From an uncultured Nitrospinota bacterium (GTDB lineage Bacteria > Nitrospinota > Nitrospinia > UBA9942), in the NCBI GenBank assembly GCA_964391545.1, contig CAYMMR010000032.1:1-14649 (forward strand): 14,649 nt of DNA. The letters run 5' to 3'. Positions 1-14,649 of this stretch are shown here, one piece after another (within the stretch, counting starts at the first letter, position 1; each line of letters starts with the position of its first letter). The position numbers and the translations under genes are program-made. Under the pieces are notes generated by a model, which did not search any database, had not been told where the DNA came from, and saw only the letters and a list, made by a program, of their open reading frames with translations.

Positions 1-133
1 CTTGACCCTTCCGAATAAACTCCTCCGCCTTATCGTCTATCTCATAAAGCTCGTTATTCTTTATGTCATATATGTAAGGCTTTTCCAGTTTTTTGAGGGA
101 GCAGTGGGGAGAGAGCCTTAAAAATCTATTCAT
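1..133 (-). CDS. Partial CDS whose N-terminus lies in the window and continues beyond the left edge. The N-terminus looks like the PqqD/RRE-type leader-binding domain that opens many radical-SAM RiPP maturases.
   Basis: Reverse complement of 1..133 begins with ATG (131-133) and reads MNRFLRLSPHCSLKKLEKPYIYDIKNNELYEIDDKAEEFIRKGQ with no stop. The pattern xYDIxNNELYEIDDxAxEFI resembles the beta-strand/helix start of RRE-containing rSAM maturases (AlbA/SkfB-like). It is missing from the ORF track only because fewer than 60 aa are visible. Confidence 0.45.
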   Translation of the reverse strand, partial: MNRFLRLSPHCSLKKLEKPYIYDIKNNELYEIDDKAEEFIRKGQ

Positions 134-154
134 AAAAATTATAAAACCTTTTCA

Positions 155-313
155 CCACAAAGGCACAAAGATCACAAAGGAAATAAAAGAAAAAGATTGA
201 GGAGAAATAGAGAAACAGTGAAAGGGAGAAAAAATAATTTTTATTTTTCCCTTTCTTTTCTTCATCTTCTCCCTTCCTCCTTTCCTTTCTTTGTGTCCTT
301 TGTGTCTTTGTGG
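155..313. repeat. Roughly 160-bp imperfect palindrome with a purine-rich left arm and a pyrimidine-rich right arm, terminal CACAAAG / CTTTGTG modules, and an A/T palindromic centre.
   Basis: ccacaaaggcacaaagatcacaaagg (155-180) pairs with cctttctttgtgtcctttgtgtctttgtgg (284-313). The interior is gaggagaaatagagaaacagtgaaagggagaaaaaataa | tttttatttttccctttcttttcttcatcttctcccttcctcc. Confidence 0.6.
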
Positions 314-326
314 TTAATCAGGTTTT

Positions 327-635
327 TTATTCTTCCATTATCCTGTGGAGCAAAATAAAACCGCCGCACGGGGGGGCGATGCCGTAATGCTTTTCGTCTC
401 TGTAATCGCATCCATCGCTTAAAAAATCACACCTCTTACAGAGTATCTCCATAAGGATCGAGTCATATTTAAATACAGAAAGGCAATCTTTTTTACCGGG
501 ATTATTTGCAGGGAGAGGGAAAAATCTCTCGAAAAATTTGAATCCTTCGCAGCACAAATCTTCATTCTTAGATTCTTTGTAATATTTGCAGTATCCCTTG
601 CAGATTAAATCTATAAGATGCTTTTTTGTATCCAT
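327..635 (-). CDS. Cysteine-rich hypothetical protein of about 102 aa (9 Cys: CxxxC, CC, CxxC, DGC, PPCGG). Possible metal-binding protein or radical-SAM substrate/partner.
   Basis: ORF 327..644. The track's first M is a TTG lying inside the upstream GGGTCAAGG palindrome; the first ATG gives MDTKKHLIDLICKGYCKYY.... It lies between two radical-SAM genes on the same strand. No family was recognised. Confidence 0.55.
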   Translation of the reverse strand: MDTKKHLIDLICKGYCKYYKESKNEDLCCEGFKFFERFFPLPANNPGKKDCLSVFKYDSILMEILCKRCDFLSDGCDYRDEKHYGIAPPCGGFILLHRIMEE

Positions 636-636
636 A

Positions 637-708
637 GGATTCAAGGGGGCAAGGGTTCAAGGGTAAGTGCCTTTCACTTGAATCCTTGACCCCTTGACCC
701 CTTTTTCA
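637..708. repeat. Imperfect hairpin of GGGTCAAGG-type modules between the radical-SAM stop and the Cys-rich gene start, followed by a T-run on the plus strand.
   Basis: ggattcaagggggcaagggttcaagggtaagtg cctttc acttgaatccttgaccccttgacccc ttttt. The left arm overlaps the TTG pseudo-start of ORF 327..644. Confidence 0.6.
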
Positions 709-767
709 TCAGCAGGAGCTTTTGCATTTGCATAGCCCTTTAGCCACTTTTGCTACTTTTTTAATCT

Positions 768-2180: not shown

Positions 2181-2185
2181 ATCTT

Positions 2186-2340
2186 TTATAATACTGCGAA
2201 ACTTTTTTTGGGCGACTTTTTATTTTTCCTTTTGCTCCAACCCCCCTCAATCCCCCCTTTTTTAAAGGGGGGAGGAAGGGGGGTTAAAATAGGACAAAAG
2301 AAAAAATAACGGAAGCGAAAAAAAAGGTTTCGCAGTATAA
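2186..2340. repeat. MITE-like intergenic element of about 155 bp, with 22-bp terminal inverted repeats and a central G6/C6-rich perfect-ish hairpin.
   Basis: Left TIR ataatactgcgaaacttttttt (2189-2210) pairs with right TIR aaaaaaaaggtttcgcagtataa (2318-2340). The centre (2239-2287) is aacccccctcaatccccccttttttaaaggggggaggaaggggggtt. No ORF is inside. Confidence 0.5.
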
Positions 2341-2342
2341 AC

Positions 2343-3554
2343 TTACATCCCCATCTTCTCCCTCGCCTCCTGCAGCACATCTTCCGTTATCTCTTTATAG
2401 CCCTTCTCTACAGCGTAACCGATTATCGCCTTTTTTGCCATATTTCTTACAAAAGGCGGTATCTTCTCGATACGGGACAGCGCCTCTTTTGTCCAGGGCA
2501 ATTCCTGACTTCCGACTTCTGTCTCCTGTCTTCTGTCTTCTTTTAATATATGCTTCTGTGTAACGATAAGAAGATTACAGGACGACTGAATCAGCAGATT
2601 TTCCGTTACGGAGCCCAAGTCAAGCCCGTTATCCGTATGATAACCGACTTTACCTGCTGCTGCCAGAGAAGGATTTTCCTTCTCTATATACTCCAGCACC
2701 TTATCGAACGGCCTGCCCGAAAAAAGGATCGTTTTTATATCCAGCCCCTCTTCTTTTGCAATTTTTTTTGCATTGTCCAGATGCCCCTGATATATCTTCT
2801 CCAGTCCTTTATCGATTATCTCGTCATGCAGCTTCTCCTGCTCTTTAAATTTAAAGAGCTTTCCGGCTTCCTCGGATAGAACCCCTGCAATACTCCTGAA
2901 GGCGACAACATGAAATTGAGGGTCGAATACAGCCACTGCCTCGAGGGGAAGATTAAATGCCTTTGCCAATGCAGCGCATCTTTTAACGGCAGCAAAGGAT
3001 TGGGGGCTTCCGTCAACCGCTACAATAATCTTTCTATCCCACTTTTCGGTTTTTTTTACAACCAGGATGTCGCTTTTAGACCTCCTTGCCACTCTCGATG
3101 TTACGCTTCCTATAAGGCTCCTTTTCAACGCACCAAGACCAAGCAAACCTATTATTACCAAATTGTATCGGCTTTCATTTATATCCTTCACAATCCGGGA
3201 ATAATTTTTGCCTTCCATGGTCTTCCGCTGAAATGCCACTCCGGCGCTCTTGCACATATTCTCGAAATGGTCAAGATATGAATCCGATATTATCTGCAAT
3301 CCCTTCGTTATCAGCGTGTCATGGATTTTTCTTTGACGGTCCAACTCCTCCTCTTCTTGATATTCGGGCGGAAGGCCGCTCTCCATCTGAGAAAATCTCT
3401 GGTCGTGAAGCCTGGCAGCATAAACATGATTTCCAATCAGAGTGGAATTGAATTTTCTTGCCAGAGAAATCCCGACATCTATGGCAAGATTGGAATGCTC
3501 CGAGTTGTCTACAGGGATTAATATGGTTTTAAATTGGCCGTTAAAATCCGACAT
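2343..3554 (-). CDS. Tandem universal stress protein (two UspA domains, both with an ATP-binding G-x2-G-x9-GS motif) fused to a C-terminal PCP_red-like domain.
   Basis: USP1 runs TILIPVDNSEHS...GLLGLGALKRSLIGSVTSRV. USP2 runs KIIVAVDGSPQS...GKVGYHTDNGLDLGSVTENLL. The tail PWTKEALSRIEKIPPFVRNMAKKAIIGYAVEKGYKEITEDVLQEAREK is the same motif as the tail of the neighbouring radical-SAM protein. A strong SD (GAGGAGGAGG) lies 4 nt upstream of the ATG. Confidence 0.85.
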   Translation of the reverse strand: MSDFNGQFKTILIPVDNSEHSNLAIDVGISLARKFNSTLIGNHVYAARLHDQRFSQMESGLPPEYQEEEELDRQRKIHDTLITKGLQIISDSYLDHFENMCKSAGVAFQRKTMEGKNYSRIVKDINESRYNLVIIGLLGLGALKRSLIGSVTSRVARRSKSDILVVKKTEKWDRKIIVAVDGSPQSFAAVKRCAALAKAFNLPLEAVAVFDPQFHVVAFRSIAGVLSEEAGKLFKFKEQEKLHDEIIDKGLEKIYQGHLDNAKKIAKEEGLDIKTILFSGRPFDKVLEYIEKENPSLAAAGKVGYHTDNGLDLGSVTENLLIQSSCNLLIVTQKHILKEDRRQETEVGSQELPWTKEALSRIEKIPPFVRNMAKKAIIGYAVEKGYKEITEDVLQEAREKMGM

Positions 3555-3573
3555 CTACCTCCTCCTCAAAAAT

Positions 3574-3586
3574 AGGAATAATTCCT
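3574..3586. promoter_or_regulatory. 13-bp palindrome AGGAATAATTCCT at the predicted +1 / 5'UTR of the USP-PCP_red gene. Candidate operator.
   Basis: AGGAAT/ATTCCT arms are perfect and sit immediately downstream of the predicted -10 and upstream of the SD. Confidence 0.35.
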
Positions 3587-3615
3587 AAAATATCTCAAAA
3601 TATCAACTTTGTCAA
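3587..3615 (-). promoter_or_regulatory. Sigma-70-like promoter for the USP-PCP_red gene: TTGACA-N17-TATTTT on the minus strand.
   Basis: Minus-strand TTGACA = plus 3610-3615. A 17-nt spacer follows, then TATTTT = plus 3587-3592. This sits about 35 nt upstream of the ATG at 3554. Confidence 0.4.
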
Positions 3616-3628
3616 GGGATTATTTTCA

Positions 3629-3675
3629 CCTCACCTTAATCCTCTCCCCAAAGGGGAGAGGGAAGGGTGAGGGGG
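3629..3675. repeat. GC-rich imperfect hairpin (cctcaccttaatcctctcccc / aaa / ggggagagggaagggtgagg) between the receiver-gene stop and the USP promoter.
   Basis: Stem of about 20 bp with a 3-nt loop. It lies downstream of the stop of the minus-strand receiver gene (3679) and may act as its terminator, although no U-run follows on the minus strand. Confidence 0.45.
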
Positions 3676-3678
3676 AAA

Positions 3679-4047: not shown

Positions 4048-4062
4048 AATACCCCCCAAAGA

Positions 4063-4135
4063 TAAGCAATGAGCAATGAGTGCCGAGCAATGAGTCTCAT
4101 TACTCGTTGCTCATTGCTCGTTGCTCATTGCTTTT
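4063..4135. repeat. Roughly 70-bp near-perfect palindrome built from the GCAATGA(G) heptamer. The right arm lies inside the last 11 codons of the histidine kinase.
   Basis: agcaatgagcaatgagtgccgagcaatgagtctcattactcgttgctcattgctcgttgctcattgc. The right arm encodes the repetitive C-terminal tail ...[10 protein letters not shown] of the kinase. Confidence 0.7.
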
Positions 4136-6058
4136 TCTTTGCCTTCTCGGCAGATTAATAATGAATGTGGCGCCTTCGCCGACCCTGTTATTTATCTCTA
4201 TCGTTCCTCCGTGGCTCTCGACTATCTTCCTGCTTAACGAAAGTCCGAGACCCGTCCCGTATTTTTTAGTCGTAAAAAAGGGATTAAATATATTCTCTAA
4301 AATATCGGACGGTATCCCGCCGCCGGTATCGCTTATGCTTATCGTTACACCTTCCTCGCCGCTCAGAGTCTCCGTCTTTATTGACATAACCCCACCCTTC
4401 CCTGTCATAGACTCCACTGCATTATATAAAATATTGGTAATAACCTGCTTTATTTGAGGAGGGTCAATGCTTAAAGGACGAATTGCATCCGACATATATT
4501 TTTTAATTTCTATGCCGCTCTCCCAGAATGTATGCTCATAGAACGACAATAGCTCTTCGATTATGCCGTTTATATCGTTTTCCGAAAAATTAGGCTTTAT
4601 ATCCCTCGAATAGTTGAGTATATCCTTGAGGAGTCTTTCCAGCCCCTCCACCTCGCTGATTATTATGCTTGCATAGCTTTTCTCCTCGGATGTCGGCTCG
4701 TATTTTTCGGAGAGCCTCCTTGCAAATCCGCCGATAGTTACCAGAGGATTTTTTATCTCGTGGGCAAGCTCTGCTGCAAGCTCTCCAAGCGCCGAAAGCC
4801 TCTCCGACTGCACAACCTGCTGCTGCGCGGAGACGATTTCCCTATTCGCCTCCTTTAATTTTGCAAAAAGTTTCGAGTTTTCGATCGCCCATCCTGCATG
4901 AACTGCAAACCTTACGAGTGTCTGAAGGTCTTCATCCATTATGGGCTTGCCGGTATAGATATTATCCACTACTATAACGCCAAGCACATTTTCCTTTGCA
5001 ATAATCGGAACCGTGGCAAAGCTTTTAACCCCGCTCTTATTAATAATATCATGATTCACCCTCCTATCGTTCCATGCATCCTTTATATTGAAAGGCTTCT
5101 TTTCCATGACTGTCAGGGCTATAACCCCGCTCTCCACGGCTATAGGCAGTCTTATCCCTTTTATAAATTTATCATACATGGATTCTTTTTTTGCAGGCGC
5201 CTCCCCCTGAGATATAAGCCATGAAGACAGTTCGGTAATATGCGGCATCCTGCTCCATATCTGCTGCGCCTCTTCCCCAGAATCCGGACCAAGCCCCATC
5301 ATGCCCTGAATAGTGTCTGTCTTCTCATTAACAAGCAAGAGTCCTGCCCTGTTAAATCCGAATGCTCCGCCTGCGGTAACACAGCTTAATATTATCCTCA
5401 GCAATCTATCGAGATTAACGGTAGTCTGCATCGCAATGCTCATCTCATAGAGCATGGACAGCTCCCTCAATCTCTGTGTCGCCTTTTCATAGAGTTGCGC
5501 ATTTTTTATTATCCCGGATACCTGATCCGCTATTGTCGCCAGCAGCTTTATATCGTCCTCCGAATAATCGGTTTCTTTAATATTCTGGGTATATATAACG
5601 CCTATGCAGCAGTTCCTATCCATAATCGGAACCACAAGGACGGATTTAAACCTCTCCTCTTCCGTTACCGGGAAATGAATAAAGCGGGGGTCGCTTGCAG
5701 CATCCTTAAGCGACGCCGCCTTTTTGTTCTGGCATACCCACCCTGAAATCCCTTCGCCCATTCTAAGTATGACCTTGTTGATTGAAGCAGGATTTAAGCC
5801 CCTTGTAGCCTTTAACATAAGATTTTTACCTTCTTCGTCAACGAGGAGTATCGAGCAGGCATCTGCATTGGTATATTTTACGATTACCTCGACAATAGAA
5901 TTGAGCCTGTCTTCCAATTCCAGCGATGAATTGGCAATCCTGCTTACCTCGCTTAAAATCTCGAGCCGGTTGACCCCGCCGATTTTTTGCGCGGCTTTTT
6001 CTACCCTTCTTAAATGAGATTTTGATTTGGCCGGTTTCATATAAAAATATAGGGTCAT
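4100..6058 (-). CDS. Cytoplasmic sensor histidine kinase with GAF-GAF-HisKA-HATPase_c architecture.
   Basis: Two GAF-like blocks (…[13 protein letters not shown]…; …[12 protein letters not shown]…). H-box [21 protein letters not shown] boxes ISDTGGGIP...[20 protein letters not shown]. No TM segments. The track start at 6079 is a TTG inside a palindrome, so the true start is probably ATG 6058 ([10 protein letters not shown]) or 6040 (MKPAKS). Confidence 0.88.
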
Positions 6059-6115
6059 GGGGCAAGGGGCATGGGTCAAGAAAAACCTGACCCTTGCTAC
6101 TTGACCCTTGACCCT
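6051..6115. repeat. Imperfect palindrome of GGGTCA(A/T)GG modules spanning the HK start and the glgA stop.
   Basis: Left arm agggtcatggggcaaggggcatgggtcaag, loop aaaaac, right arm ctgacccttgctacttgacccttgaccct. The right arm encodes the glgA C-terminal residues GSRVK*. The left arm creates the spurious TTG-initiated MTHAPCP extension of the kinase ORF. Confidence 0.65.
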
Positions 6116-7596
6116 TTCTTCTCTATTGCCTTCTTATACAGTTCCAAATACTCCCTCGCAGAATGCCCCCATGAATAGTCCTCTCCCATAGCCTTAACCA
6201 TTAATTCCTTCCAATCGGGATGGACTCCGTAAACATCTACAGCCCTTTTAATCGCAGACAGCAGTTCCTTTGACGAATACTCTTTAAATTTAAACCCGTT
6301 TCCTGTCTTTTTTATAGGGTCGTAATTCTCGATGGTATCGTTCAGCCCTCCTGTTGCCCTCACAACCGGCACGGTTCCATATTTAAGGCTGTAAAGCTGG
6401 TTGAGCCCGCAGGGCTCGTATTTAGAAGGCATGAGAAACATATCCGCCCCCGCCTCGATTTTATGAGCCAGCGCATTATCGAAGCCGATCTTTATCCCTG
6501 CCTTTAACGGATATTTCTTTCCGATATCTTCAAAAATTTTTTGATATTTTTCCTTTCCTGTCCCGAGAAATATAAACTGGAGGTCGAGCCCCATCAGGTC
6601 GGCGATAACCTCCGTTACCAGATCAAACCCTTTCTGCTCATCCAAACGGGAGATAGCGGCTATAACGGGTATCTCTTTGGAGGGTGCGAGCCCGTATATA
6701 TCGAGCAAGTCTTTTTTACATTCCCACTTGCCCGACAGATCGTTTACCGAATATTTTGCGGCTAAATATCCATCTGTTTCAGGATTCCATTCTTCGTAAT
6801 CGATTCCGTTCAGGACGCCGCAAAGGTCGTCCTTTCTCTTTAGCAGGACACCGTCGAGCCCGCGTCCATACTCCTCTGTCTGTATTTCGAGGCTGTAGGT
6901 CTTGCTGACTGCCGTGATAATATCGGAATATAAGATGCCTCCTTTGAGAATATTTATCTTTCCATAAAACTCTATCCCCTCCGGTGTAAATATATCCCAC
7001 CCGAGATTTGTAAGGTGCATATCGAAATGCCAGAACAGCCCCTGATACCCTATATTGTGGACGGTGAAAAGGACTGCAGTATCTTTAAAAAACGGGTCGT
7101 TTTTATACAGCGTCTTCAAATAAACAGGCAGCATGCCCGTCTGCCAGTCATTGCAGTGAATAATATCGGGTTTAAATCCTATCGCCTTGCAGGCTTCAAG
7201 AACCGCCCTCGAAAAATATATAAATCTCTCTGCATTATCCGGATAATCCCCCTGCGGCGTTCCGTATAAATACTCCCTGTCGTAATACTCTTTTTTATCT
7301 ATAAAATATACAGGTATGCCTTTACTTGCCCCTTGCCCCCTGCCCCCTGCCTCTGAATTAATGTATCCTTTATATATCTTTGCCTCCTCGATTCTGTTCG
7401 ATATGGGAACGTTGATATTTTTGCCTGTATACTCAAGCCCGAATTTTTTCTCATCCACTATCTTATACTTCGGCATTATGGCGGCAACATCCTCGCCGAG
7501 TCTTTCGAGCGCCTTTGGCAGGGCGCCGGTTACATCTGCCAGTCCCCCGGTCTTTGCAAAGGGGACTATCTCGGGAGAGGATATAAGTATTTTCAT
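6097..7596 (-). CDS. glgA: Glycogen (starch) synthase, ADP-glucose type, GT5 family.
   Basis: MKILISSPEIVPFAKTGGLADVTGALPKAL has the hallmark KTGGL(A/G)DV N-terminus. Length 499 aa, with GT-B fold motifs throughout (…GFDNALAHKIEAGADMFLMPSKYEPCGLNQLYSLKYGTVPVV…). Confidence 0.93.
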   Translation of the reverse strand: MKILISSPEIVPFAKTGGLADVTGALPKALERLGEDVAAIMPKYKIVDEKKFGLEYTGKNINVPISNRIEEAKIYKGYINSEAGGRGQGASKGIPVYFIDKKEYYDREYLYGTPQGDYPDNAERFIYFSRAVLEACKAIGFKPDIIHCNDWQTGMLPVYLKTLYKNDPFFKDTAVLFTVHNIGYQGLFWHFDMHLTNLGWDIFTPEGIEFYGKINILKGGILYSDIITAVSKTYSLEIQTEEYGRGLDGVLLKRKDDLCGVLNGIDYEEWNPETDGYLAAKYSVNDLSGKWECKKDLLDIYGLAPSKEIPVIAAISRLDEQKGFDLVTEVIADLMGLDLQFIFLGTGKEKYQKIFEDIGKKYPLKAGIKIGFDNALAHKIEAGADMFLMPSKYEPCGLNQLYSLKYGTVPVVRATGGLNDTIENYDPIKKTGNGFKFKEYSSKELLSAIKRAVDVYGVHPDWKELMVKAMGEDYSWGHSAREYLELYKKAIEKKGSRVK

Positions 7597-7601: not shown

Positions 7602-7665
7602 AAGGGGTCAAGGGGTCGAGTGAAAATCTAAACGAACCCTTGAACCCTCGAACCCGCGAACCCTT
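7602..7665. repeat. Imperfect hairpin of GGGGTCAAGG / GAACCC modules between the glgA start and the galT-like stop.
   Basis: aaggggtcaaggggtcgag ... gaacccttgaaccctcgaacccgcgaaccctt. The reverse complement of the right arm matches the left arm in about 15 of 19 positions. Confidence 0.55.
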
Positions 7666-7670
7666 CTCCA

Positions 7671-8717: not shown

Positions 8718-8736
8718 TGTGATATATTTTATCACA
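8718..8736. promoter_or_regulatory. Perfect 7-bp inverted repeat TGTGATA-N5-TATCACA in the divergent galT-like / PAS-kinase intergenic region. Candidate transcription-factor operator.
   Basis: tgtgatatattttatcaca. The half-sites resemble the TGTGA/TCACA class (CRP/FNR-like) but with non-canonical spacing. Confidence 0.35.
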
Positions 8737-8757
8737 AAAATGAAGTCTTAATGCAAT

Positions 8758-8823
8758 AATAGTTAAGTTGTTGAGTGGTTGAGTTGTTAAACTACTCAAC
8801 TACTTAACAACTCAACTATTTAA
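8758..8823. repeat. Imperfect palindrome of GTTGAGT / ACTCAAC modules upstream of the PAS histidine kinase.
   Basis: atagttaagttgttgagtggttgagttgtt aaa ctactcaactacttaacaactcaactattt. Confidence 0.6.
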
Positions 8824-8835
8824 ACCCACTAATCG

Positions 8836-10356
8836 ATGAAAAAGGCGAAGGAATTAAAAATCTTAACGGACAAATTAGACCGGTCTTTAAAAGAGATAGC
8901 GGGACTAAAGACAAAGCTGGAGGAGTCCGAAAGGAGGTACTATGACCTCTATGAAAATGCGCCGGATATGTATCATACAATAAATACTAAAGGCATAATA
9001 ATTGACTGCAATAAAACAGAGGCAGAGGCATTGGGATATTCGAAGGAAGAGCTCATAGGACGGTCCGTGCTGAATATTCAGACGGAAGAATCTAAAAAAA
9101 TAGGAAAGGCCGCCATGAAAAAACTCTTTTACGCCGGAAAGGTAAAGGGGCTCGAACTCCAGTTTATAAAGAAAAACGGCGAGGTAATGGATGTCAGCAT
9201 AAACGCCACTGTTATATACGATAAAAACGGAAAACCTGCCGGCACAAGATCGGTAATCAGGGATATTACAAAGAAAAAGAGGATGGTGGAAATAATTAAA
9301 AACTCCAGACGCGAACTGCAGGCAACAATAGACGCCATAACGGATGGAATATGCCTGCTGGATAGGGCGTTTAGAATAGAACGGATAAATAAAAGCATGG
9401 CGGGGCTTTTCGGCAAATCACCCGTAGAGTTTATCGGCAAAAAATGCTATACTGTTTTCGAAAACAGGGAAAAGGTATGCGAGGGGTGCAAAATTATGGG
9501 AACATTTACCTCCGGAGAACCTGTGATTTATAACGATATTAAAAATATCGGCTACGGCACATCGCTCGAAGTTGAAATATCGGTATTCCCCGTTAAAGGC
9601 AATAAAAAAAAGGTGGAACAGGTGGTCTATTATATGAAAGATATAACGGAAAAGAGGAGGCTGGAGAGAGAGCTTGAGTATTCCAAAATCATGGCTTCGC
9701 TGGGTGAAATGGTAACAGGCGTCGCCCACGAGATAAGAACGCCGCTTCAGAACATACTTACGGGCATAGACCTTTTGGAATCCGAGGCAAAAAAGAAGGA
9801 TTTGAATCTTGAGGTGGCGGAGAATTTGAGAGATTTTGCAATTGATATGAACTATATCGTTCAGGAGCTTTTAGATTTCTCAAAGCCGGTAAAACTCGAA
9901 ATCGAGGAAAGGGATGTAACGGATATTATCGACGAAACGATAAAATATTTCAACCCGCGGATGAAGAAATGTAATATAATCGTATCCAGAAAATACAGCC
10001 GTCCGATAAAAAAGACATCTATAGATGTAAGGAGGATAAGGCATGTCTTCTTAAATATAATCGAGAATTCCATTAATGCCATGCCCGATGGCGGGGAAAT
10101 TACCGTGTCGGCCGAACCGTATTATGATAATAAGGGGGAATTTATCATAATAGTATTTTCCGATACGGGCCGCGGCATAGCCTCAAAAAACATCGGCAAG
10201 GTGTTCAATCCTTTTTTTTCAACGAGGACGGAGGGGATAGGGATGGGGCTTGCAGTGGCAAAAAAATTCATCAAGCTGCACAACGGCGAGATTAACATAA
10301 CCAGTAAAGAAGGGAAGGGATGCGAGGTAACGATATTACTGCCGGTAAAGAAGTAG
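8836..10356 (+). CDS. Cytoplasmic sensor histidine kinase with coiled-coil-PAS-PAS-HisKA-HATPase_c architecture.
   Basis: PAS1 YYDLYENAPDMYHTINTKGIIIDCNKTEAEALGYSKEELIGRSV. PAS2 carries an unusual C-x10-C-x2-C (CYTVFENREKVCEGCKIMG). H-box VTGVAHEIRTPLQNI. G-boxes FSDTGRGIASKNIGKVFNPFFST…GMGLAVAKKFIKLHNGEI. Confidence 0.88.
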   Translation: MKKAKELKILTDKLDRSLKEIAGLKTKLEESERRYYDLYENAPDMYHTINTKGIIIDCNKTEAEALGYSKEELIGRSVLNIQTEESKKIGKAAMKKLFYAGKVKGLELQFIKKNGEVMDVSINATVIYDKNGKPAGTRSVIRDITKKKRMVEIIKNSRRELQATIDAITDGICLLDRAFRIERINKSMAGLFGKSPVEFIGKKCYTVFENREKVCEGCKIMGTFTSGEPVIYNDIKNIGYGTSLEVEISVFPVKGNKKKVEQVVYYMKDITEKRRLERELEYSKIMASLGEMVTGVAHEIRTPLQNILTGIDLLESEAKKKDLNLEVAENLRDFAIDMNYIVQELLDFSKPVKLEIEERDVTDIIDETIKYFNPRMKKCNIIVSRKYSRPIKKTSIDVRRIRHVFLNIIENSINAMPDGGEITVSAEPYYDNKGEFIIIVFSDTGRGIASKNIGKVFNPFFSTRTEGIGMGLAVAKKFIKLHNGEINITSKEGKGCEVTILLPVKK

Positions 10357-10568
10357 TGTCAAAGTGTCAGAGTGTCAAAGTTTTAAACTAATGGATAGTC
10401 CCACAAATAGCTTTACCATAGTTTGTCATTCTCGCGAAAGCGGGAATCCAGTAAAATCAAAGACTGGATTCCGCATCGAGTGCGGAATGACAGTAAAGGA
10501 ACTTTAGAGACACTCTACTAACTATGACACTTTGATACTTTGATACTCTGACACTGCTTTGAGGTTTT
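10356..10568. repeat. Complex nested palindromic element between the HK and RR genes. Outer inverted arms are made of GTGTCAAAG modules. The inner 67-nt core is symmetric and can fold into a four-way junction.
   Basis: Outer left arm 10356-10380 gtgtcaaagtgtcagagtgtcaaag. Outer right arm 10525-10555 tgacactttgatactttgatactctgacac. Inner core 10425-10491 GTCATTC-tCGCgaaaGCGgga-ATCCAG-taaaatcaaaga-CTGGAT-TCCGCAtcgagTGCGGA-ATGAC. Confidence 0.65.
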
Positions 10569-10961: not shown

Positions 10962-10965
10962 GTGA

Positions 10966-11031
10966 ATTGATATAGTGTTAAGTAGTCGAGTGGTTAAACA
11001 ACTCAACAACTTAACTAAAATGGAGGTTAAA
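10966..11031. repeat. Imperfect hairpin of GTTAAGT / ACTCAAC modules between the RR stop and the tatA start.
   Basis: gttaagtagtcgagtggtt aaa caactcaacaacttaac. It uses the same module family as 8758-8823. Confidence 0.55.
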
Positions 11032-11250
11032 ATGTTTGGAATAGGAATGCCCGAGCTGATTGTTATTCTGGTTATTATTCTGATAATATTTGGCGCAGGC
11101 AAGCTTCCCGAGATAGGCGCAGGACTCGGAAGGGGCATAAAGAATTTCAAGAAGGCAACCAAAGAAGTTCAGGATGAGGTTGAGACAACTGCAAAAATCG
11201 AAGAAGAAACAGCCAAAGCAGAGCCTAAGGCCGACGCAAAAAAGGCATAG
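11032..11250 (+). CDS. tatA: Twin-arginine translocase subunit TatA/E.
   Basis: [42 protein letters not shown] is the canonical TatA TM-hinge-amphipathic-helix signature (compare E. coli [42 protein letters not shown]). GGAGG SD 5 nt upstream. The track ORF starts 57 nt earlier, inside the palindrome. Confidence 0.9.
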
Positions 11251-11257
11251 ACTGATA

Positions 11258-11340
11258 ATAGGTAAAGAGGCAAAGAGGTTAAGAGGCTAAAAGGTAAAGG
11301 CAATGCCCCTTGACCTCTTTGCCTTTTAACCTTTTTACCT
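11258..11340. repeat. Imperfect palindrome of AGGNNAAG modules between the convergent tatA and REC-GGDEF genes. Likely bidirectional terminator region.
   Basis: Left modules aggtaaag aggcaaag aggttaag aggctaaa aggtaaagg. Centre caatgcccc. Right arm ttgacctctttgccttttaacctttttacct is the reverse complement of the same modules and is T-rich at its 3' side. Confidence 0.55.
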
Positions 11341-12277
11341 ATTCACCCCTCAAGTCCTTCACATACTTGCTCCCTTTAAGCGATTTGGCATACTTCTTTA
11401 AATCCGCGGCAATGGCGCTTGCCTCTCCGAGGTGGTTTATCTTTCTCTTTTCGTTCGTCACCACTGCGACAGAGATAGTCATAATCGGGAATCTCTCCTT
11501 TTCCCCTTTTCTATTCACTGAATCCATATATCCTCTCACCCTGTCCTCCTCGTCATAAAAGGTGGTTATCAAGAGGTCAAAGTATTTAATAATCTGCCTG
11601 CATGCGCTTTCTACAAGCTCAACCGGCACTATGAATACAAAATCATCGCCGCCTACATGCCCGACAAATGTATCCGGGCAATTTAACTCCCTGACGGCAT
11701 TTGTTACGACACGGGCTGTCATTCTTAGTATCTCGTCGCCCCTGCTAAAACCGTATTTGTCATTATATGGCTTGAAATTATCGAGGTCTATGTAGGCAAG
11801 GGCAAACTTTTTATTCAAATCAACCCTCTTTTGCCCCTCTTTCATAATAGAGTTATTGCCCGGCAGGCGGGTAAGGGGATTGGCATCCAGTTCTCTTGCC
11901 GCTCTTGAAAAAGAAAGAGAAACCCTTAAGGTTAAGTCGTCGGAATTAAGAGGTTTTATAATATAATCGTCTGCCGGAATGGAGTCCCAGACGATTTTAC
12001 CCCGTTCAAATCCGGATGGTATAAGCAGTATCACAGGAAGGTGTCCATATACGGTATCGGACTTTAATTGACGGCAGAGTTCATCCCCTTTTATAGAGGG
12101 CATTTCAATGGCAATTATTATCAAATCCGGAGGCTCGTTGTATATTGCATCGAGCGCATTTTTACTGTCTTCCGTATAATACGCAAGATAGCCCTTTTCC
12201 CCGAGAGTGTTCCGAATAAATTCTGCGGTTCGAGAATCGTCATCTATTATTAAAATTCTCTTTTTACTTTCGGACAT
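11339..12277 (-). CDS. Response regulator with REC plus GGDEF (diguanylate-cyclase) domain. The active-site motif is GGDDF rather than GG(D/E)EF.
   Basis: REC: ILIIDDD, LIIIAIEMPSIKG, IIKPL. GGDEF domain: ALAYIDLDNFKPYNDKYGFSRGDEIL ... TFVGHVGGDDFVFIVP. Confidence 0.88.
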   Translation of the reverse strand: MSESKKRILIIDDDSRTAEFIRNTLGEKGYLAYYTEDSKNALDAIYNEPPDLIIIAIEMPSIKGDELCRQLKSDTVYGHLPVILLIPSGFERGKIVWDSIPADDYIIKPLNSDDLTLRVSLSFSRAARELDANPLTRLPGNNSIMKEGQKRVDLNKKFALAYIDLDNFKPYNDKYGFSRGDEILRMTARVVTNAVRELNCPDTFVGHVGGDDFVFIVPVELVESACRQIIKYFDLLITTFYDEEDRVRGYMDSVNRKGEKERFPIMTISVAVVTNEKRKINHLGEASAIAADLKKYAKSLKGSKYVKDLRGE

Positions 12278-12297
12278 TGCTTAAAGGAAGTAACCAC

Positions 12298-13161
12298 TCA
12301 ACTGCTTTTTTGTTCATTAGCTGCGGCAAACATGGAGTCGTCAATATTCTCGAGGCTTTCTTCCATATCTCCGATAATCTCTTCGAGTATTTCCGGGGTA
12401 ATCTTCAGGCTCTCCCATGCCGCCTTATCTATTAAGGGGACGAGACTGTCGCCGCTGAATCCAAACCCCTTTGCCCTGATAAGAATATCGGACAAATGTG
12501 TCATGGCTGTCTGCCTCGGGGCAAACCTCGCCAGATGAGGCTGATGATGGTAGGCAATCGGGTCCGAAAGGTTTTTAGGCAGATTCCATTTTTCGCAGAG
12601 CCAGCTTCCGACAGTTGCGTGGGTAAAATCAAAAATCTTCATCTCCGCCTCATACATGGAGATATTTTTATCGCCGACCATTTTCTCTATATTTCCAGAT
12701 TCCTCGGGCATCTCCAATTTAATGACAACCTTGCCGAAATCATGCAGAAGAGCCGCAACGGATACCTCTTCCGGTTCGGGCTGATTCAATTTTCTTGCAA
12801 TGGCGCCTGCAGTCATTGCGCATCCAAGAGAATGCTTCCAGAGGTCAACCATGCCTTTGCTCATCATGATGTCGAAGACAGAAGTGCTTAATACCAGCCC
12901 CTTAACCACATTGAAACCCAGCAGCACGAGCCCGTGGGTTACATTGGATATCCTGCCGGGAAATCCATAAAAAGCGGAATTTATAAGCCTCAATACCTTT
13001 GCAGATAGTATCTGGTCGCTGGATATGATCTTTCCAACCTCTTCTGCGGATGTAGAAGAACTCTCCACCATAAGGCTTATTTTCTGAATAACGCCGGGGA
13101 GGGTGGGGAGATTCTTCAATTCCTCGATTCTTCTCCTGATTTTGCTTTTTTCTAAACTCAT
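12298..13161 (-). CDS. HDOD-domain (HD-related output domain) signalling protein, co-operonic with the REC-GGDEF gene across a 20-nt gap.
   Basis: LPTLPGVIQKISLMVESSSTSAEEVGKIISSDQILSAKVLRLINSAFYGFPGRISNVTHGLVLLGFNVVKGLVL is the HDOD signature, followed by a degenerate HD-like region (ALLHDFGK...). Confidence 0.82.
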   Translation of the reverse strand: MSLEKSKIRRRIEELKNLPTLPGVIQKISLMVESSSTSAEEVGKIISSDQILSAKVLRLINSAFYGFPGRISNVTHGLVLLGFNVVKGLVLSTSVFDIMMSKGMVDLWKHSLGCAMTAGAIARKLNQPEPEEVSVAALLHDFGKVVIKLEMPEESGNIEKMVGDKNISMYEAEMKIFDFTHATVGSWLCEKWNLPKNLSDPIAYHHQPHLARFAPRQTAMTHLSDILIRAKGFGFSGDSLVPLIDKAAWESLKITPEILEEIIGDMEESLENIDDSMFAAANEQKSS

Positions 13162-13180
13162 TTTATTTATAAAAACACCG

Positions 13181-13314
13181 GAACACGAATTACACTAATA
13201 TACGAATGGCACGAATAAAAAAATCGAAATTGAGGCAATTTTTTAATTTTAATCTTTGATTTTTAATCTTTGATTTTCATTCGTGTAATTCGTCCATTCG
13301 CGCTATTCGTGTTC
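13181..13314. repeat. About 35-bp inverted repeats of ACGAAT(A/G) modules flanking a roughly 60-bp AT-rich spacer with a tandem 13-mer (ttttaatctttga x2).
   Basis: Left arm gaacacgaattacactaatatacgaatggcacgaat. Right arm attcgtgtaattcgtccattcgcgctattcgtgttc, whose reverse complement shares the outer 10 and inner 6 nt with the left arm. Direct repeat at 13246-13271. Confidence 0.55.
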
Positions 13315-13630
13315 ATGTTTTTATTCCCATCTTCTCTCTTATCCGTTTCTCGAATATCTCCTTTATCATCTTCATCACAGGGTCGGAGGAAATCTTTTCA
13401 AACCGCTTCTCCAAATCCCGAAGCTGCTCTTCGGGGGGCTTTTCTGCAACCCCTGTATCGACAGGATGCCCCTCTACCGTTATCTTCGGAATTCCCATGT
13501 TCGAAAGTCGGGATATAAGTGCATCGCTCAATTCAACACCCTCGCCGCAGAGAACCAGCCCCTTTTCATTCAATACGGATTTTGCCAGCTTCATCCCCGG
13601 TTTTGCCAGACTTAAAGGTATCTTTTGCAT
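13313..13630 (-). CDS. Small protein (about 105 aa) resembling the N-terminal DUF3391-type domain that precedes HD-GYP and other c-di-GMP signalling modules.
   Basis: MQKIPLSLAKPGMKLAKSVLNEKGLVLCGEGVELSDALISRLSNMGIPKITVEG fits the L.pGM.la.dv....G.lL...G..L....i.rL...Gi..i.v pattern. The track ORF's first 14 aa (MFFFSLALTLTCFF, TTG start) are translated palindrome. Confidence 0.5.
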   Translation of the reverse strand: MQKIPLSLAKPGMKLAKSVLNEKGLVLCGEGVELSDALISRLSNMGIPKITVEGHPVDTGVAEKPPEEQLRDLEKRFEKISSDPVMKMIKEIFEKRIREKMGIKT

Positions 13631-13638
13631 AAAAAAAC

Positions 13639-13702
13639 AGGTTAAGGTTAAGGCTAAGGAAAAGAAAAACAATCACTCAACCTCAACCTTAACCTCAACC
13701 TT
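13639..13702. repeat. Imperfect hairpin of AGGTTAAGG / CCTCAACCT modules between the small-protein start and the hflC stop.
   Basis: aggttaaggttaaggctaagg - aaaagaaaaacaatcact - caacctcaaccttaacctcaacctt. Confidence 0.6.
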
Positions 13703-14548
13703 TCATTTCATGTATCTCAAAAACTCGGACTCCGGAGATAAAATAACCGTAGTCTTATCTTTCAGGGATTTTTTATACGCATCGAGTGAGCGGGTAAAGG
13801 TATAAAATTCAGGGTCGGACTGGACAGCATCGGCATATATCTTTATCGCAGATGCATCCCCCTCTCCCTTTGTCCTTTGCTCCTCCCTGTATGCCTCTGC
13901 AAGAAGTATTACCTTTTCCCTGTCGGTCTCCGCCCTTATCTTTGTCGCCTCTTCCTGTCCTTCCGAACGATACTGCATTGCAATCCTCTCCCTCTCTGCC
14001 TGCATCCTTCCGTATATCGCCTTGGCGTTCTCATGGGGGAGGTCTGCCCTCTTTATCCTTACATCCCTTACCTCTATCCCGTAGTCGCCAAATTTCTCAT
14101 TTGTCCTTTTTGTTACAGTCTCCATAATGTCTCCCCTTGTCTCCGATAAGACCTCATGAAGGGTGTGCCGCCCCAATTCTATCCTGAGCTCCGAATAAAT
14201 AATATCATCCAATCTTGCCTGCGCCCCTGTCTCATCTTTCACGGTTATCATGAGCTTTAGCGGGTCTATTATCCTCCATTTGGCATAATTATCCACAAGG
14301 AGATTCTTTTTATCCTTAGTCAGTATTTCGGCGGACGCAGCGTCATAATCCAGAAGTCTCTTATCAAAGAAGCGGGTCTCCTGAAGCATTGGTATTCTGA
14401 AATAAAGACCGGGCTCATAGATAGTATCTATCGGCTTGCCGAGCTGCGTCAGGACTACCTGTTCCGTCTGCCTTACAATAAAGAGAGGATTAAGGAACAT
14501 AAAGAAAATCAGTAACGCACCAATGATTATTAATAAAATATTTTTCAT
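13703..14548 (-). CDS. hflC: HflC, the SPFH/band-7 modulator of FtsH protease.
   Basis: N-terminal TM helix (ILLIIIGALLIFFMF). ...IVRQTEQVV.. LGK..., EPGLYFRIP, VRDVRIKRADLP, AIYGRMQAERERIA, SEGQEEA, GEGDA. C-terminal PESEFLRYMK* matches E. coli HflC ...PDSDFFRYMK. AGGAGGG SD upstream. Confidence 0.9.
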   Translation of the reverse strand: MKNILLIIIGALLIFFMFLNPLFIVRQTEQVVLTQLGKPIDTIYEPGLYFRIPMLQETRFFDKRLLDYDAASAEILTKDKKNLLVDNYAKWRIIDPLKLMITVKDETGAQARLDDIIYSELRIELGRHTLHEVLSETRGDIMETVTKRTNEKFGDYGIEVRDVRIKRADLPHENAKAIYGRMQAERERIAMQYRSEGQEEATKIRAETDREKVILLAEAYREEQRTKGEGDASAIKIYADAVQSDPEFYTFTRSLDAYKKSLKDKTTVILSPESEFLRYMK

Positions 14549-14649
14549 TATTTTCCCTCCTTTCCCTGACCCCTGCCCTGAATTTGTCTAATAGTATCCA
14601 AAGGCAAAAGAGGCAGAACACCAGATTTCCCCTCAACGATATATTTATC
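14548..14649 (-). CDS. hflK: 3' end of hflK (partial; continues beyond the right edge). The stop overlaps the hflC start as TAATG.
   Basis: On the minus strand the frame is open from the window edge: ...DKYIVEGKSGVLPLLPLDTIRQIQGRGQGKEGK*. The VLPLLPLD block resembles E. coli HflK ...LMVLPLDQMLK. Its TAA shares the A of the hflC ATG. Confidence 0.65.
   Translation of the reverse strand, partial: DKYIVEGKSGVLPLLPLDTIRQIQGRGQGKEGK

Follow-up and report, generated by a model that had tools for sequence, protein, structure and literature searches.

The window, the whole 14,649-nt stretch analysed here, derives from an uncultured Nitrospinota bacterium and carries radical-SAM, Cys-rich, Usp/PCP_red, histidine-kinase, response-regulator, glgA, galT, PAS-kinase, tatA, RR-GGDEF, HflC and HDOD genes, together with ORFs of 20 and 105 aa. 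Thirteen palindromic sites jointly occupy 1,280 nt, or ~85% of its intergenic DNA. They are listed below with two solitary arrays (strand where assigned; TRF, Tandem Repeats Finder arrays; z, folding score against shuffled sequence).

150..318: composite palindrome between the Cys-rich ORF stop (327) and the next radical-SAM gene start (133); outer arms of CCAC/CACAAAG(G) units (TRF 156-180/288-312, period 8), inner purine/pyrimidine (GA-rich) palindrome at ~185-295; arms I1 62 nt, 73% complementary; MFE -68.8, z -9.1.
636..703, minus strand: GGGTCAAGG-family module palindrome, core CAAGTGAAA on the minus strand, filling the spacer from the 20-aa ORF stop (709) to the Cys-rich ORF start (635); arms I5 32 nt, 81% complementary; TRF 636-664/684-703, period 8; z -4.6.
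2186..2340: MITE-like element with a 19-nt terminal inverted repeat (ATACTGCGAAACTTTTTTT; I13, 95% complementary) and an inner C-run/G-run palindrome at 2238-2290; z -9.4.
2505..2541, minus strand: solitary heptamer array CTGTCTT, 5.3 copies (TRF), in the Usp/PCP_red protein linker.
3627..3677: plain hairpin CACCTCACC..CCTCTCCCC-AAA-GGGGAGAGG..GGGTGAGG, pyrimidine-rich 5' arm; z -4.7.
4057..4141: GCAATGAG module palindrome (I3, I4, I6; 75-82% complementary); TRF 4065-4080/4096-4132; right arm holding the histidine-kinase stop codon (4100-4102) and last ~13 codons, stem base adjoining the response-regulator RBS (~4052-4057); z -10.7.
6051..6116: GGGTCATGG/GGGGCAAGG module palindrome (I21) with the glgA stop codon (6097-6099) in its right arm; TRF 6051-6080/6088-6116, periods 7 and 14; z -5.9.
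7327..7351, minus strand: solitary heptamer array TGCCCCC, 3.6 copies (TRF), within glgA, encoding a hypervariable surface loop (in the protein alignment, a variable insert between GYINS and IPVYFI).
7602..7665, plus strand: GGGGTCAAGG-family palindrome, core CGAGTGAAA on the plus strand, filling the galT-glgA spacer; asymmetric, two units in the left arm and four in the right; TRF 7602-7617/7633-7664, period 8; z -1.2.
8758..8823: GTTGAGT/GTTAAGT module palindrome (I15) in the divergent galT/PAS-kinase spacer, ending 12 nt before the kinase ATG; TRF 8762-8788/8790-8823, periods 8 and 16; z -9.3.
10351..10559: GTGTCAAAG module palindrome (I11, I16; 88-89% complementary), arms 10351-10381 and 10529-10559 around 147 nt with a second hairpin (~10395-10500), left arm overlapping the PAS-kinase stop codon; TRF 10355-10381/10521-10555; z -9.5.
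10975..11020: small GTTAAGT/GTCGAGT palindrome between a response regulator and tatA; scan match 10977-11015, TRF 10997-11015; z -3.6.
11257..11343: AGGTAAAG/AGGCAAAG/AGGTTAAG module palindrome (I7, I10; 80-84% complementary) between convergent tatA and RR-GGDEF, overlapping the RR-GGDEF stop codon; TRF 11260-11299/11322-11340, period 8, 5 copies; z -6.3.
13173..13322: ACGAAT(N) module palindrome (arms I2 49 nt, 76% complementary) filling the spacer between the 105-aa ORF and HDOD; TRF 13185-13217, inner 14-nt direct repeat at 13247-13277; z -5.7.
13639..13702: AGGTTAAGG/CTCAACC module palindrome (I8, I17) between HflC and the 105-aa ORF; TRF 13639-13659/13676-13701, period 6; minus strand folding at -35.9 and plus strand at -18.9; z -5.0.

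Repeat searching and folding recovered an inverted repeat at every intergenic site where the first-pass annotation had reported one (13/13). When exact element coordinates were folded against 200 dinucleotide shuffles per site, 12 of the 13 gave z values from -3.6 to -10.7 with no shuffle equally stable, and 7602..7665 folded weakly; coding-sequence controls (n=120) had a mean z of -0.17. An assembly artefact is ruled out by contigs 99.95-99.99% identical that carry the same elements in four independent samples. The description of each arm as a short direct-repeat array is accurate for 11 of the 13 sites, whose arms consist of 6-9-nt tandem units, and does not apply to 2186..2340 and 3627..3677, which are palindromic without tandem modules. 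In the arms TRF reports arrays of period 6-8, plus 14-, 16- and 17-nt rows, and a purpose-built scan for module palindromes returned 12 in the window but none in its block-shuffled counterpart. The Cys-rich gene start, originally placed inside a stem, lies outside it (ATG 633-635) and directly adjoins the stem at 636-703.

The expectation that such palindromes are enriched in this lineage was borne out, the density being 5.2 per 10 kb in the clade (69 in 132 kb; 3 elements in shuffled clade sequence) and 0.49 per 10 kb in other taxa (61 in 1.24 Mb). Likewise the window elements do share one architecture built from many different units; the accompanying claims, that the sequence differs at each locus and that this is not a dispersed-repeat family, did not hold. 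Units of the GGGTCAAGG type occur at three window sites (636, 6051 and 7602), the GTTGAGT/GTTAAGT and AGGTNAAG families twice each, and AGGTAAAG and AGGTTAAGG units at both 11257 and 13639; 10977-11015 is a paralogue of 8758-8820 (87.5% alike over 40 nt).

For each window element type, relatives exist at further loci or in further genomes, and among eight related Nitrospinota loci the module families reappear at non-orthologous sites, the matches comprising the GGGTCAAGG, GCAATGAG, GTGTCAAAG, ACGAAT and GA-rich types, the C-run palindrome and the GGGGAGAGG hairpin. Thus 636..703 has 30 nt in common at 100% with a non-orthologous site in L001 (2205-2276), the inner GA-rich part of 150..318 matches non-orthologous loci in L081, L083, L001 and L002, and the inner palindrome of 2186..2340 is 85-92% alike to L226, two L081 sites and L083. 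Copies of 3627..3677 lie at two other loci in L083 (17065-17109 and 2958-2999; 85-91% alike), the GCAATGAG family is found in L003 at one orthologous and one non-orthologous site, and 31 nt of 13173..13322 are 90% alike to L087 4862-4925, which lies at another junction. The GTGTCAAAG family occurs in L001 (11728-11791; 96% over 27 nt) and in L226, there with a 16-nt loop; the second hairpin of 10351..10559 may be an ancestral interior deleted in relatives and not an insertion. Paralogues that include the loop exist within single genomes (L083 9914 and 13958, 94% over 50 nt; L081 2801 and 4382, 86% over 59 nt). An exact GGGTCAAGG-family 17-mer is present in at least 120 metagenome contigs, and 29 of 89 analysed matches fall within detected palindromes, on contigs of 39-70% GC. 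This family has a conserved oriented core, CAAGTGAAA, and 35 GGGTCAAGG-type copies have [C/G][A/G]AGTGA[A/T] in common beside the purine arm; relative to flanking genes the core is sense in 10 and antisense in 4 cases, a bias that is not significant. No window element matched REP tags or Rfam families. Sequence likeness of this kind suggests that the elements are several dispersed repeat families, not separate inventions at each gene boundary.

Whether relatives carry different palindromes at orthologous positions had been posed as a check: among 24 junction comparisons with flanks at least 85% identical, the spacers were unrelated in 17 and conserved in 4. L001 and L087, with coding DNA 91-96% identical, differ wholly and with sharp boundaries at 5-6 junctions, and spacers of 85-190 nt retain no residual similarity between genomes with 96% identical flanks. 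Conversely, L081 and L083 carry a cassette between the tiny ORF and the Cys-rich gene that is 98.75% identical over 80 nt, differing mainly by one 6-nt unit, at a coding identity of ~77%, and another cassette is common to L001 and L003 at 96%, against the gene phylogeny. Judged by these alignments, cassettes fill the whole stop-to-start spacer and are evidently replaced wholesale, much faster than flanking genes diverge, and near-identical cassettes are evidently common to distant lineages. The 2186..2340 element is missing at the same junction in L001, L002 and L083; the Usp-rSAM spacer measures 5-6 nt in these three and 70-165 nt where filled, with the N-terminus of the gene rebuilt there. 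In L081 and L083 the linker that carries the 2505..2541 array contains a C-run/G-run palindrome. At its own junction, 3627..3677 is kept in L081 (90% alike over 63 nt). Some orthologous elements in different lineages look like gradual derivatives of one another: 636-703 still has the AAGTGAA(A)GGCA centre seen in the L081/L083 cassette, and the units GGTTGA, GGATTTGA and GGGTTCAA at the HflC-unk junction look related across lineages. Such cases are as compatible with evolution in place as with replacement. The junction comparisons showed neither target-site duplications nor clean insertion scars. A transposase or autonomous element with matching ends was not found; the one candidate examined, L133, was rejected as it has ordinary genes between two inverted copies. 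Across four population samples from a single species, length polymorphism was absent.

The elements have a common polarity, the 5' arm being purine-rich in 58 and pyrimidine-rich in 7 of 65 copies (a count of copies; by family only ~13 vs 4), as against 108 vs 87 purine-first among generic hairpins of other taxa. The 10 nt 5' of the 5' arm are 41% A and the 10 nt 3' of the 3' arm 41% T.

We propose, at a probability of about 0.55, that the tandem-module palindromes are several dispersed non-coding foldback repeat families, selfish or simply dispersed, that grow by slippage. Within a groundwater Nitrospinota clade these families would have spread into the spacers between genes, the ends of genes and a small number of permissive loops in proteins. 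In layout, each element is an imperfect hairpin with 6-9-nt units arrayed along both arms; its 5' side has an A-rich head and purine-rich arm, its 3' side a pyrimidine-rich arm and T-rich tail. Spread would follow a hairpin-dependent copy-and-paste route: palindromes might template-switch or undergo gene conversion with one another, spacer alleles might be exchanged by homologous recombination, or a transposase might act in trans. The elements would subsequently grow in place by slippage. Any consequences for the host are probably of the REP type and either incidental or exapted: they could serve on either strand as weak bidirectional terminators or protective 3'-end hairpins, since purine-first polarity would place a weak pyrimidine-RNA:purine-DNA hybrid and a T-rich tail directly after the hairpin closes, and the gene directly downstream would have its start region masked as well.

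Such activity could instead be the reason for their existence, as host-selected terminators, attenuators or mRNA-stabilising hairpins that evolve in place under selection for structure only, with slippage as the source of variation; we consider this unlikely, though it fares best among the alternatives. Twelve of the 13 elements overlap the stop codon of the upstream gene or start 0-13 nt from it, the A-rich head and T-rich tail are in keeping with termination, and the polarity would have the hairpin followed, on both strands, by an rY:dR hybrid, a weak one by the accepted ranking of hybrid stabilities. A strict terminator scan detected no canonical terminators in the window spacers, which agrees with the initial remark that most elements lack a U-run, a remark to be qualified by the 41% T that follows the 3' arm. 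Transcript starts or stops are more frequent in the analogous Xanthomonas repeats (PMC4692102). Against selection for termination, elements also lie in the divergent promoter spacer in most genomes, within coding linkers, and directly before start codons, where a promoter would not fit (as at 11 nt upstream of the glgA ATG); stems of 25-40 bp with interiors reaching 147 nt do not resemble those of terminators. Nor is the transcribed strand favoured in folding (better in 5, worse in 5, tie in 1), and this lack of strand asymmetry gives no backing to the RNA-level roles first suggested; conserved pairs show 1 compensatory vs 11 disruptive changes. Selection for structure also fails to explain why unrelated loci, and unrelated organisms, carry copies that are nearly identical.

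Somewhat less probable still is a purely mutational by-product at each site, in which slippage expands an arm and intrastrand template switching (quasipalindrome correction) mirrors it, with no movement between loci and with similar units arising by convergence. Slippage itself, suggested in the first-pass annotation and part of the favoured reading too, is clearly in evidence: higher-order repeats of 14 and 16 nt are limited to one arm (the right arm of 4057..4141 has 2.6 copies of a 14-nt repeat at 95%), and a single 6-nt unit is the exact difference between two orthologous copies, so that within one arm an array changes in steps of whole units or of two-unit blocks. Arms pair almost as well when shifted by one unit (complementarity 0.84 in register, 0.75 shifted, 0.76 within an arm), unit variants form gradients along arms, and related units occupy orthologous sites. 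Heptamer SSRs are over-represented in bacteria, and slippage has been put forward to account for this (PMC4692102). A site-by-site origin is nevertheless hard to reconcile with the non-repetitive loop sequence common to different loci (L083 9914 and 13958), with the CAAGTGAAA core and longer interiors common to many contigs, with the 98.75% cassette identity at ~77% coding identity while close relatives carry unrelated cassettes, or with the absence of residual similarity in 85-190-nt spacers between 96% identical flanks.

Binding arrays or non-B DNA (G-quadruplexes, cruciforms, iteron-like protein sites) that organise the nucleoid or regulate neighbours are highly improbable, because, for all the regular 6-9-nt unit spacing, the G4 structures that the Xanthomonas analogue forms in vitro (PMC4692102) and the four G-tracts of 6051-6080, the window's only G-quadruplex-capable array, most units (GCAATGAG, GTGTCAAAG, GTTGAGT, ACGAATA, CACAAAG) lack G-tracts, an 8-bp period is unlike the helical repeat, the 3' arms resemble TTGACA to no remarkable degree (rank 765 of 4096 hexamers), and at least eight unrelated unit sequences in 14.6 kb make a single binding protein implausible.

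For dispersed foldback families that grow by slippage, published work offers its nearest analogue in the inverted GGGAATC heptamer pairs of Xanthomonas (PMC4692102). A mutational mechanism peculiar to this lineage had been one early suggestion; given the Xanthomonas precedent, the architecture is not confined to it.

The window, a complete contig of 43.6% GC, carries 16 recognisable genes. Its nearest genomes are groundwater MAGs labelled Nitrospinota/Nitrospinae, in which glgA is 74-88% identical and gene order is conserved. The comparison set comprises the window and eight syntenic relatives: loci L081 and L082 form group A with the window (85-94% DNA identity in galT plus glgA), L001, L087, L002 and L083 form group B (81-96%), and the outliers L003 and L004 share about 75-81% with the remaining loci in the same two genes. 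The genes, together with two palindromic elements that lack tandem-module arms, are as follows.

1-133: second radical-SAM gene
327-635: Cys-rich 102-aa ORF
709-771 (-): 20-aa ORF MKIKKVAKVAKGLCKCKSSC
768-2180 (-): radical-SAM/SPASM gene
2186-2340: MITE-like element, 19-nt terminal inverted repeat, no tandem-module arms
2343-3554 (-): 2xUsp protein
3627-3677: plain hairpin, no tandem-module arms
Elsewhere in the window: two histidine-kinase/response-regulator pairs
Elsewhere in the window: glgA, a galT-like gene and tatA
Elsewhere in the window: an RR-GGDEF protein, an HDOD protein, an unknown 105-aa ORF, hflC and hflK

The 20-aa ORF begins on the stop codon of the radical-SAM/SPASM gene and is 90% conserved in L001, L003, L081 and L083; downstream of it lie the Cys-rich ORF and then the second radical-SAM gene, a set that looks like a small RiPP-type maturation cluster. 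PF08369 (PCP_red, the C-terminal domain of the protochlorophyllide-reductase 57-kDa subunit) ends both the radical-SAM/SPASM protein and the double-Usp protein, an unusual C-terminal module for two neighbouring, otherwise unrelated proteins to have in common.

The first-pass annotation proposed that each gene boundary carries a palindrome assembled from its own locus-specific tandem module. Inverted repeats are present at all 13 listed sites, and when each was folded against 200 dinucleotide shuffles, 12 sites gave z scores of -3.6 to -10.7 with no shuffle equally stable; the exception is 7602-7665, a weak fold (z -1.2), and coding controls have a mean z of -0.17. The tandem build of the arms holds at 11 of the 13 sites (Tandem Repeats Finder, period 6-8) and fails at 2186-2340 and 3627-3677. 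The elements measure 46-209 nt, have arms that are 71-95% complementary, and add up to 1,280 nt, thereby covering 8.7% of the window and roughly 85% of the DNA between its genes. A strict array-pair detector returned only two pairs, being too stringent for degenerate arrays, and was replaced by an inverted-repeat-plus-periodicity scan, which found 12 elements with periodic arms in the window versus none in a block-shuffled copy. Arm pairing reaches 0.84 in register; sliding by one unit lowers it only to 0.75, and neighbouring units within one arm score 0.76, so the hairpins are register-tolerant. As an observation on sequence, the palindromes are sound and statistically strong.

The interior of the GTGTCAAAG palindrome (window 10395-10500) is a separate hairpin element (GTCATTCTCGCGAAAGCGGGAATCCAGT ... 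ACTGGATTCCGCATCGAGTGCGGAATGAC) with one relative, on metagenome contig L131 (86.5% over 52 nt); its ATTC(T/C)C-N8-GGGAAT core resembles the Neisseria dRS3 repeats. The loop of the corresponding palindrome in the IMG/VR contig L226 holds a short version of the start of this hairpin (TTTGTCATTTCGC), and the two forms may be related by either an insertion or a deletion. Upstream of tatA in L083, 741 nt (5588-6328) without a called gene have a very stable predicted fold (-238.8 kcal/mol) and end in a CCAC-type composite palindrome, with no Rfam match at the gathering threshold.

The claim that modules are locus-specific does not survive comparison, since the same unit types recur within the window, across genomes and in metagenomes. 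Units of the GGGTCAAGG type occupy three window sites, AGGTAAAG and AGGTTAAGG units occupy two, and the elements at 8758 and 10977 are 87.5% alike. Each window element type also has relatives at non-orthologous positions in other genomes, as listed here.

Relatives of window element types at other loci
GGGTCAAGG units: L001 (HflC/unk junction); L002 and L083 (HK/RR junction)
GTGTCAAAG units: L001, L226
GCAATGAG units: L003, two sites
ACGAAT units: L087, L001, L003
GA-rich inner palindrome: L081, L083, L001, L002
C-run/G-run core of 2186-2340: L226, L081 (two sites), L083
GGGGAGAGG hairpin: two further loci in L083

The likeness can extend beyond the arms: the L083 copies at 9914 and 13958 are 94% identical over 50 nt and have the non-repetitive loop in common as well. 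Elements at different loci can also be alike across genomes, as L001_16663 matches L083_6142 at 94% over 82 nt. The two C-run/G-run copies of L081 apparently fall within the coding regions of the Usp linker and the second radical-SAM gene. The GGGTCAAGG/CAAGTGAAA family numbers 35 copies across loci, in which the purine arm is immediately followed by the asymmetric core CAAGTGAAA; the core is on the minus strand in window 636-703 and on the plus strand in 7602-7665, and its orientation relative to genes (10 vs 4) is not significant. Contigs of one group (51-57% GC) have a longer conserved interior in common besides this core. The exact 17-mer GGGTCAAGGGGTCAAGG was found in at least 120 metagenome stretches; in the 80 loci analysed (39 to 70% GC), 29 of 89 matches lie inside detected palindromes. 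We conclude that the elements are several dispersed, rapidly exchanged foldback repeat families.

Viral vectors were considered as carriers and rejected, as the two 17-mers occur in 13 IMG/VR contigs each, by a rough estimate not clearly above chance, and real palindromes are found in only a few of these contigs (L213, L226 and L232). The module palindromes of L213 and L226 are complete and belong to the GGGTCAAGG and GTGTCAAAG families; L226, with 44% GC and a C-run palindrome besides, may therefore be a phage or a chromosomal fragment of the same clade. One 77.8-kb IMG/VR contig classed as viral (L211 1-89, L217 9908-9924) has at least 11 perfect GGGTCAAGG units at the locus edge. Many contigs, the window included, end in module arrays, and several metagenome contigs end in GGGTCAAGG arrays; the window starts with CTTGACCC (1-10), and near its other end the HflK C-terminus GRGQGKEGK (14553-14590, -) is encoded by GGGTCAGGG-like units. 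Multi-copy repeats have this effect on assemblies, which suggests that assemblies break at the module repeats.

The predicted enrichment in the lineage was borne out. The nine clade loci hold 69 elements in 132 kb (5.2 per 10 kb; 8.2 per 10 kb in the window), compared with 61 in 1.24 Mb from 76 loci of other taxa (0.49 per 10 kb) and three in shuffled clade sequence under the same scan. An assembly artefact is ruled out by a species that was assembled from four different samples: its four contigs agree at 99.95-99.99%, in the elements too, and they show no indels and hence no population-level length variation. The unrelated high-GC metagenome contigs L102 (13.2 kb, 63% GC), L089 and L111 reach window-like palindrome densities of 6-18 per 10 kb, and in L102 one array appears to lie directly after a tRNA-like sequence. 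Further repeat-rich lineages apparently exist besides this clade.

Slippage, one of the mechanisms suggested at first, is borne out by two-unit repeats confined to one arm and by a one-unit difference between orthologous copies. The right arm of 4057-4141 contains a 14-nt two-unit repeat (2.6 copies, 95%) that is absent from the left arm, a pattern also seen at 6051-6080 and 8790-8823, and the copies of one cassette in L081 and L083 are essentially one 6-nt unit apart. Some orthologous elements look like gradual derivatives of one another: an AAGTGAA(A)GGCA centre is common to the window and L081 cassettes, and the HflC/unk junction shows the units GGTTGA, GGATTTGA and GGGTTCAA. In-place evolution and replacement thus both seem to operate.

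Replacement is evident at orthologous junctions, where relatives were expected to carry different modules and mostly do: among 24 junction pairs with 300-nt flanks at least 85% identical, 17 spacers are unrelated and four conserved. The genes of L001 and L087 are 91-96% identical, yet different elements stand at five or six junctions, with sharp boundaries and conserved adjoining non-repeat DNA. Conversely, the tinyORF/Cys cassette is 98.75% identical over 80 nt in L081 and L083, whose genes are only about 77% identical. L001 and L003 have another cassette in common (96%), and at the same junction L001 and L083 carry unrelated cassettes in surroundings about 95% identical. This pattern of cassette sharing is incongruent with the gene tree. 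The elements evolve by at least two processes, slippage on the one hand and wholesale replacement and exchange on the other.

Gene ends are rebuilt at these sites. The Usp/rSAM spacer is empty (5-6 nt) in L001, L002 and L083 versus 70-165 nt elsewhere, and the N-terminus of the radical-SAM protein reads MDNSKF at empty sites versus MKY, MIY or MGERQY at filled ones. The stop codons of glgA and of a histidine kinase lie within arms, and glgA varies from 486 to 511 aa among its nearest homologues. Solitary arrays in glgA and the Usp linker encode hypervariable loops. In glgA, the insert flanked by GYINS and IPVYFI (alignment A1 columns about 88-103) is encoded in the window by a TGCCCCC tandem array (7327-7351, -); each relative has a different insert, and two lack it; the repeat process therefore also makes variable protein loops. 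The linker between the Usp and PCP_red domains contains a CTGTCTT x5 array in the window (2505-2541, -), and in L081 (7958-7999) and L083 (15022-15066) the same linker apparently contains a C-run/G-run palindrome akin to the 2186-2340 core.

As to placement, 12 of the 13 elements start 0-13 nt from the upstream stop codon or overlap it; towards the following gene they stop 0-20 nt short of its start codon. The remaining spacer has no Shine-Dalgarno sequence in front of glgA, the GAF kinase, the Cys-rich ORF, the PAS kinase, HDOD and the 105-aa ORF. The divergent galT/PAS-kinase spacer contains elements in most genomes. Several signs of regulatory function were sought. For 11 elements between co-directional genes the transcribed strand folds more stably in five, less stably in five and equally in one. 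Covariation amounts to one compensatory, 11 wobble and 11 disruptive changes, an uninformative count. Canonical intrinsic terminators (GC-rich stem, loop of 3-8 nt, five or more T among the 8 nt that follow the stem) occur at none of the 13 elements in a strict scan, which returned 14 sites elsewhere versus 15.8 expected; a weaker T enrichment (four or more T among the first six positions) is found for 20 of 69 elements. Tandem outward -35 boxes in the 3' arms were rejected as promoters, TTGACA-like hexamers numbering 30 outward vs 16 inward and ranking 765 of 4096; the real asymmetry of these arms lies in words containing CTT/AAG rather than in -35-like hexamers. Tolerated selfish DNA with REP-like side effects fits better than purpose-built regulators.

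One property hints at a terminator or attenuator role, namely polarity. Of the 65 informative clade elements, 58 have the purine-rich arm on the 5' side, compared with 108 of 195 generic short-loop hairpins from other taxa, and this class is independent of strand because reverse-complementing a palindrome keeps the arm order. The flanks follow the same trend, being 41% A upstream and 41% T downstream. Among the asymmetric words, AAG or GAG cores mark the 5' arm, whereas CTT marks the 3' arm. At family level the polarity is weaker, only about 13 vs 4, so common descent inflates the copy-count statistic. The established order of hybrid stability is rR:dY > dR:dY > rY:dR. Read on either strand, a transcript would close the hairpin on its pyrimidine-rich side and run on into a U-rich tail, a combination that would form the weakest possible RNA:DNA hybrid and, by that stability order, could favour release without a long U-tract. 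Purine-first polarity offers a testable hint of selection for bidirectional termination that needs no U-tract.

With a probability of roughly one in five, tandem-module palindromes may constitute a widespread, undescribed class of prokaryotic foldback element with a dedicated copy-and-paste process that writes them into gene boundaries, yielding 'punctuation cassettes' exchanged much faster than genes diverge. The copying could be hairpin-targeted template switching or the work of a trans-acting enzyme. Spacers would then be exchangeable units moving between loci and lineages. If the overall picture holds, most non-coding DNA of an entire uncultivated clade, and apparently of many other environmental bacteria, consists of rapidly exchanged hairpin cassettes. 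In practice, MAGs fragment at the elements and leave contigs ending in arrays, genes that enter arms have their starts, stops and terminal residues called wrongly, and operon and terminator prediction fails in element-rich genomes. The elements also offer a tractable case for the long-standing question of how REP-like and SSR-built palindromes originate and spread, as many lineages carry different, or unexpectedly identical, cassettes at one and the same junction and can be compared there. In the glgA and Usp-linker arrays this process has also given rise to hypervariable loops in proteins.

Among published elements, the nearest are the GGGAATC heptamer SSRs of Xanthomonas campestris/axonopodis, which form inverted pairs with 2-26 units per arm (Rehm et al. 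2015, PMC4692102). These number 183-186 arrays per genome, 89-93% of them intergenic and on average 28 nt from the upstream ORF, with 70-75 inverted 'convergent' pairs per genome, the form in which about three quarters occur; they differ in length and sequence between sister species, transcripts tend to start or stop in them, and no function was found (PMC4692102). The window elements likewise have arms that repeat a short G/purine-rich unit in tandem, show the 'convergent' polarity that in Xanthomonas puts the G-rich array in front on each strand, and are intergenic, near or overlapping the upstream stop codon and variable among close relatives. In numbers, units are 6-9 nt with at least two per arm, purine-first order prevails by 58 to 7, 12 of 13 lie close to a stop codon and 17 of 24 spacers are unrelated. 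Xanthomonas, however, has essentially one G-quadruplex-capable unit family per genome, whereas at least eight occur here in 14.6 kb, most without G4 ability: by a threshold of at least four GGG runs only 6051-6080 has four G-tracts, and most units have no GGG. Near-saturated spacers, cassette-like replacement, cross-lineage sharing, a composite architecture and the use of divergent spacers further set the window apart.

Bacterial MITEs (Correia/NEMIS, Nezha) are small, non-coding, intergenic, multi-copy elements with inverted ends that form long hairpins (Delihas 2011, PMC3184786). The 19-nt TIR of 2186-2340 and the empty sites in relatives recall them, as do inverted ends within the usual size of about 50-500 bp (arms 71-95% complementary, 46-209 nt in the window) and multiple similar copies at unrelated loci. 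The window arms differ in being degenerate SSR arrays of variable length, not fixed TIRs; no parent IS was found, and neither target-site duplications nor empty-site scars were found in comparisons of the filled/empty Usp/rSAM, rSAM/tinyORF and PASHK/galT sites, where gene termini are rebuilt instead. The one candidate for an autonomous element, in L133, has two inverted copies 1.9 kb apart that enclose ordinary genes (RodZ-like and MerR-like, next to xerD) and no transposase.

The REP/BIME/REPIN repeats of enterobacteria and Pseudomonas are imperfect palindromes outside genes, frequently joined in pairs to give larger hairpins and mostly downstream of genes, and are thought to be selfish yet to affect termination and mRNA stability, in species-specific families (PMC3733652). 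The window elements resemble them in being extragenic imperfect palindromes mostly downstream of genes. REPs, however, are 20-40 bp long, lack tandem sub-units and are marked at one end by an unpaired tetranucleotide, GTAG or CGTC (Di Nocera et al. 2013, PMC3733652), whereas the window elements are 46-209 nt with tandem-array arms of at least eight unit families. They are not REPs because these tags are absent: of the 69 clade elements, two have GTAG near a stem base and none has CGTC there; no RAYT or transposase was noticed in the inspected gene stretches, which are single contigs of genomes.

Cyanobacterial STRR and Beggiatoaceae TAACTGA heptamers are intergenic tandem units, often abutting start codons without a Shine-Dalgarno sequence, and their patchy phylogenetic distribution suggests horizontal spread (PMC4679880). 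The likeness lies in the tandem units directly abutting start codons; the heptamers, however, are almost always direct only (169 direct sets and one inverted set in a Beggiatoa genome; PMC4679880), whereas the window elements are inverted. Bidirectional intrinsic terminators have in common with the window elements the hairpin, A-rich head and T-rich tail just past the stop codon, but the window stems are far longer and elements also lie upstream of and inside genes. Rfam gave no match at the gathering threshold in the window or in 10 further loci, related or metagenomic; below it, matches were confined to eukaryotic miRNA-precursor models, which reflects generic long hairpins. A full-text literature search for the module sequence strings found no paper. 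Drosophila Foldback (FB) transposons, which have long inverted arms of short tandem repeats and variable arm length, are eukaryotic, kilobase-scale and associated with a transposase-bearing partner, so that the resemblance is an analogy that implies no relationship. Among these systems the elements stand as a new and unusually rich form of SSR-built inverted repeat.
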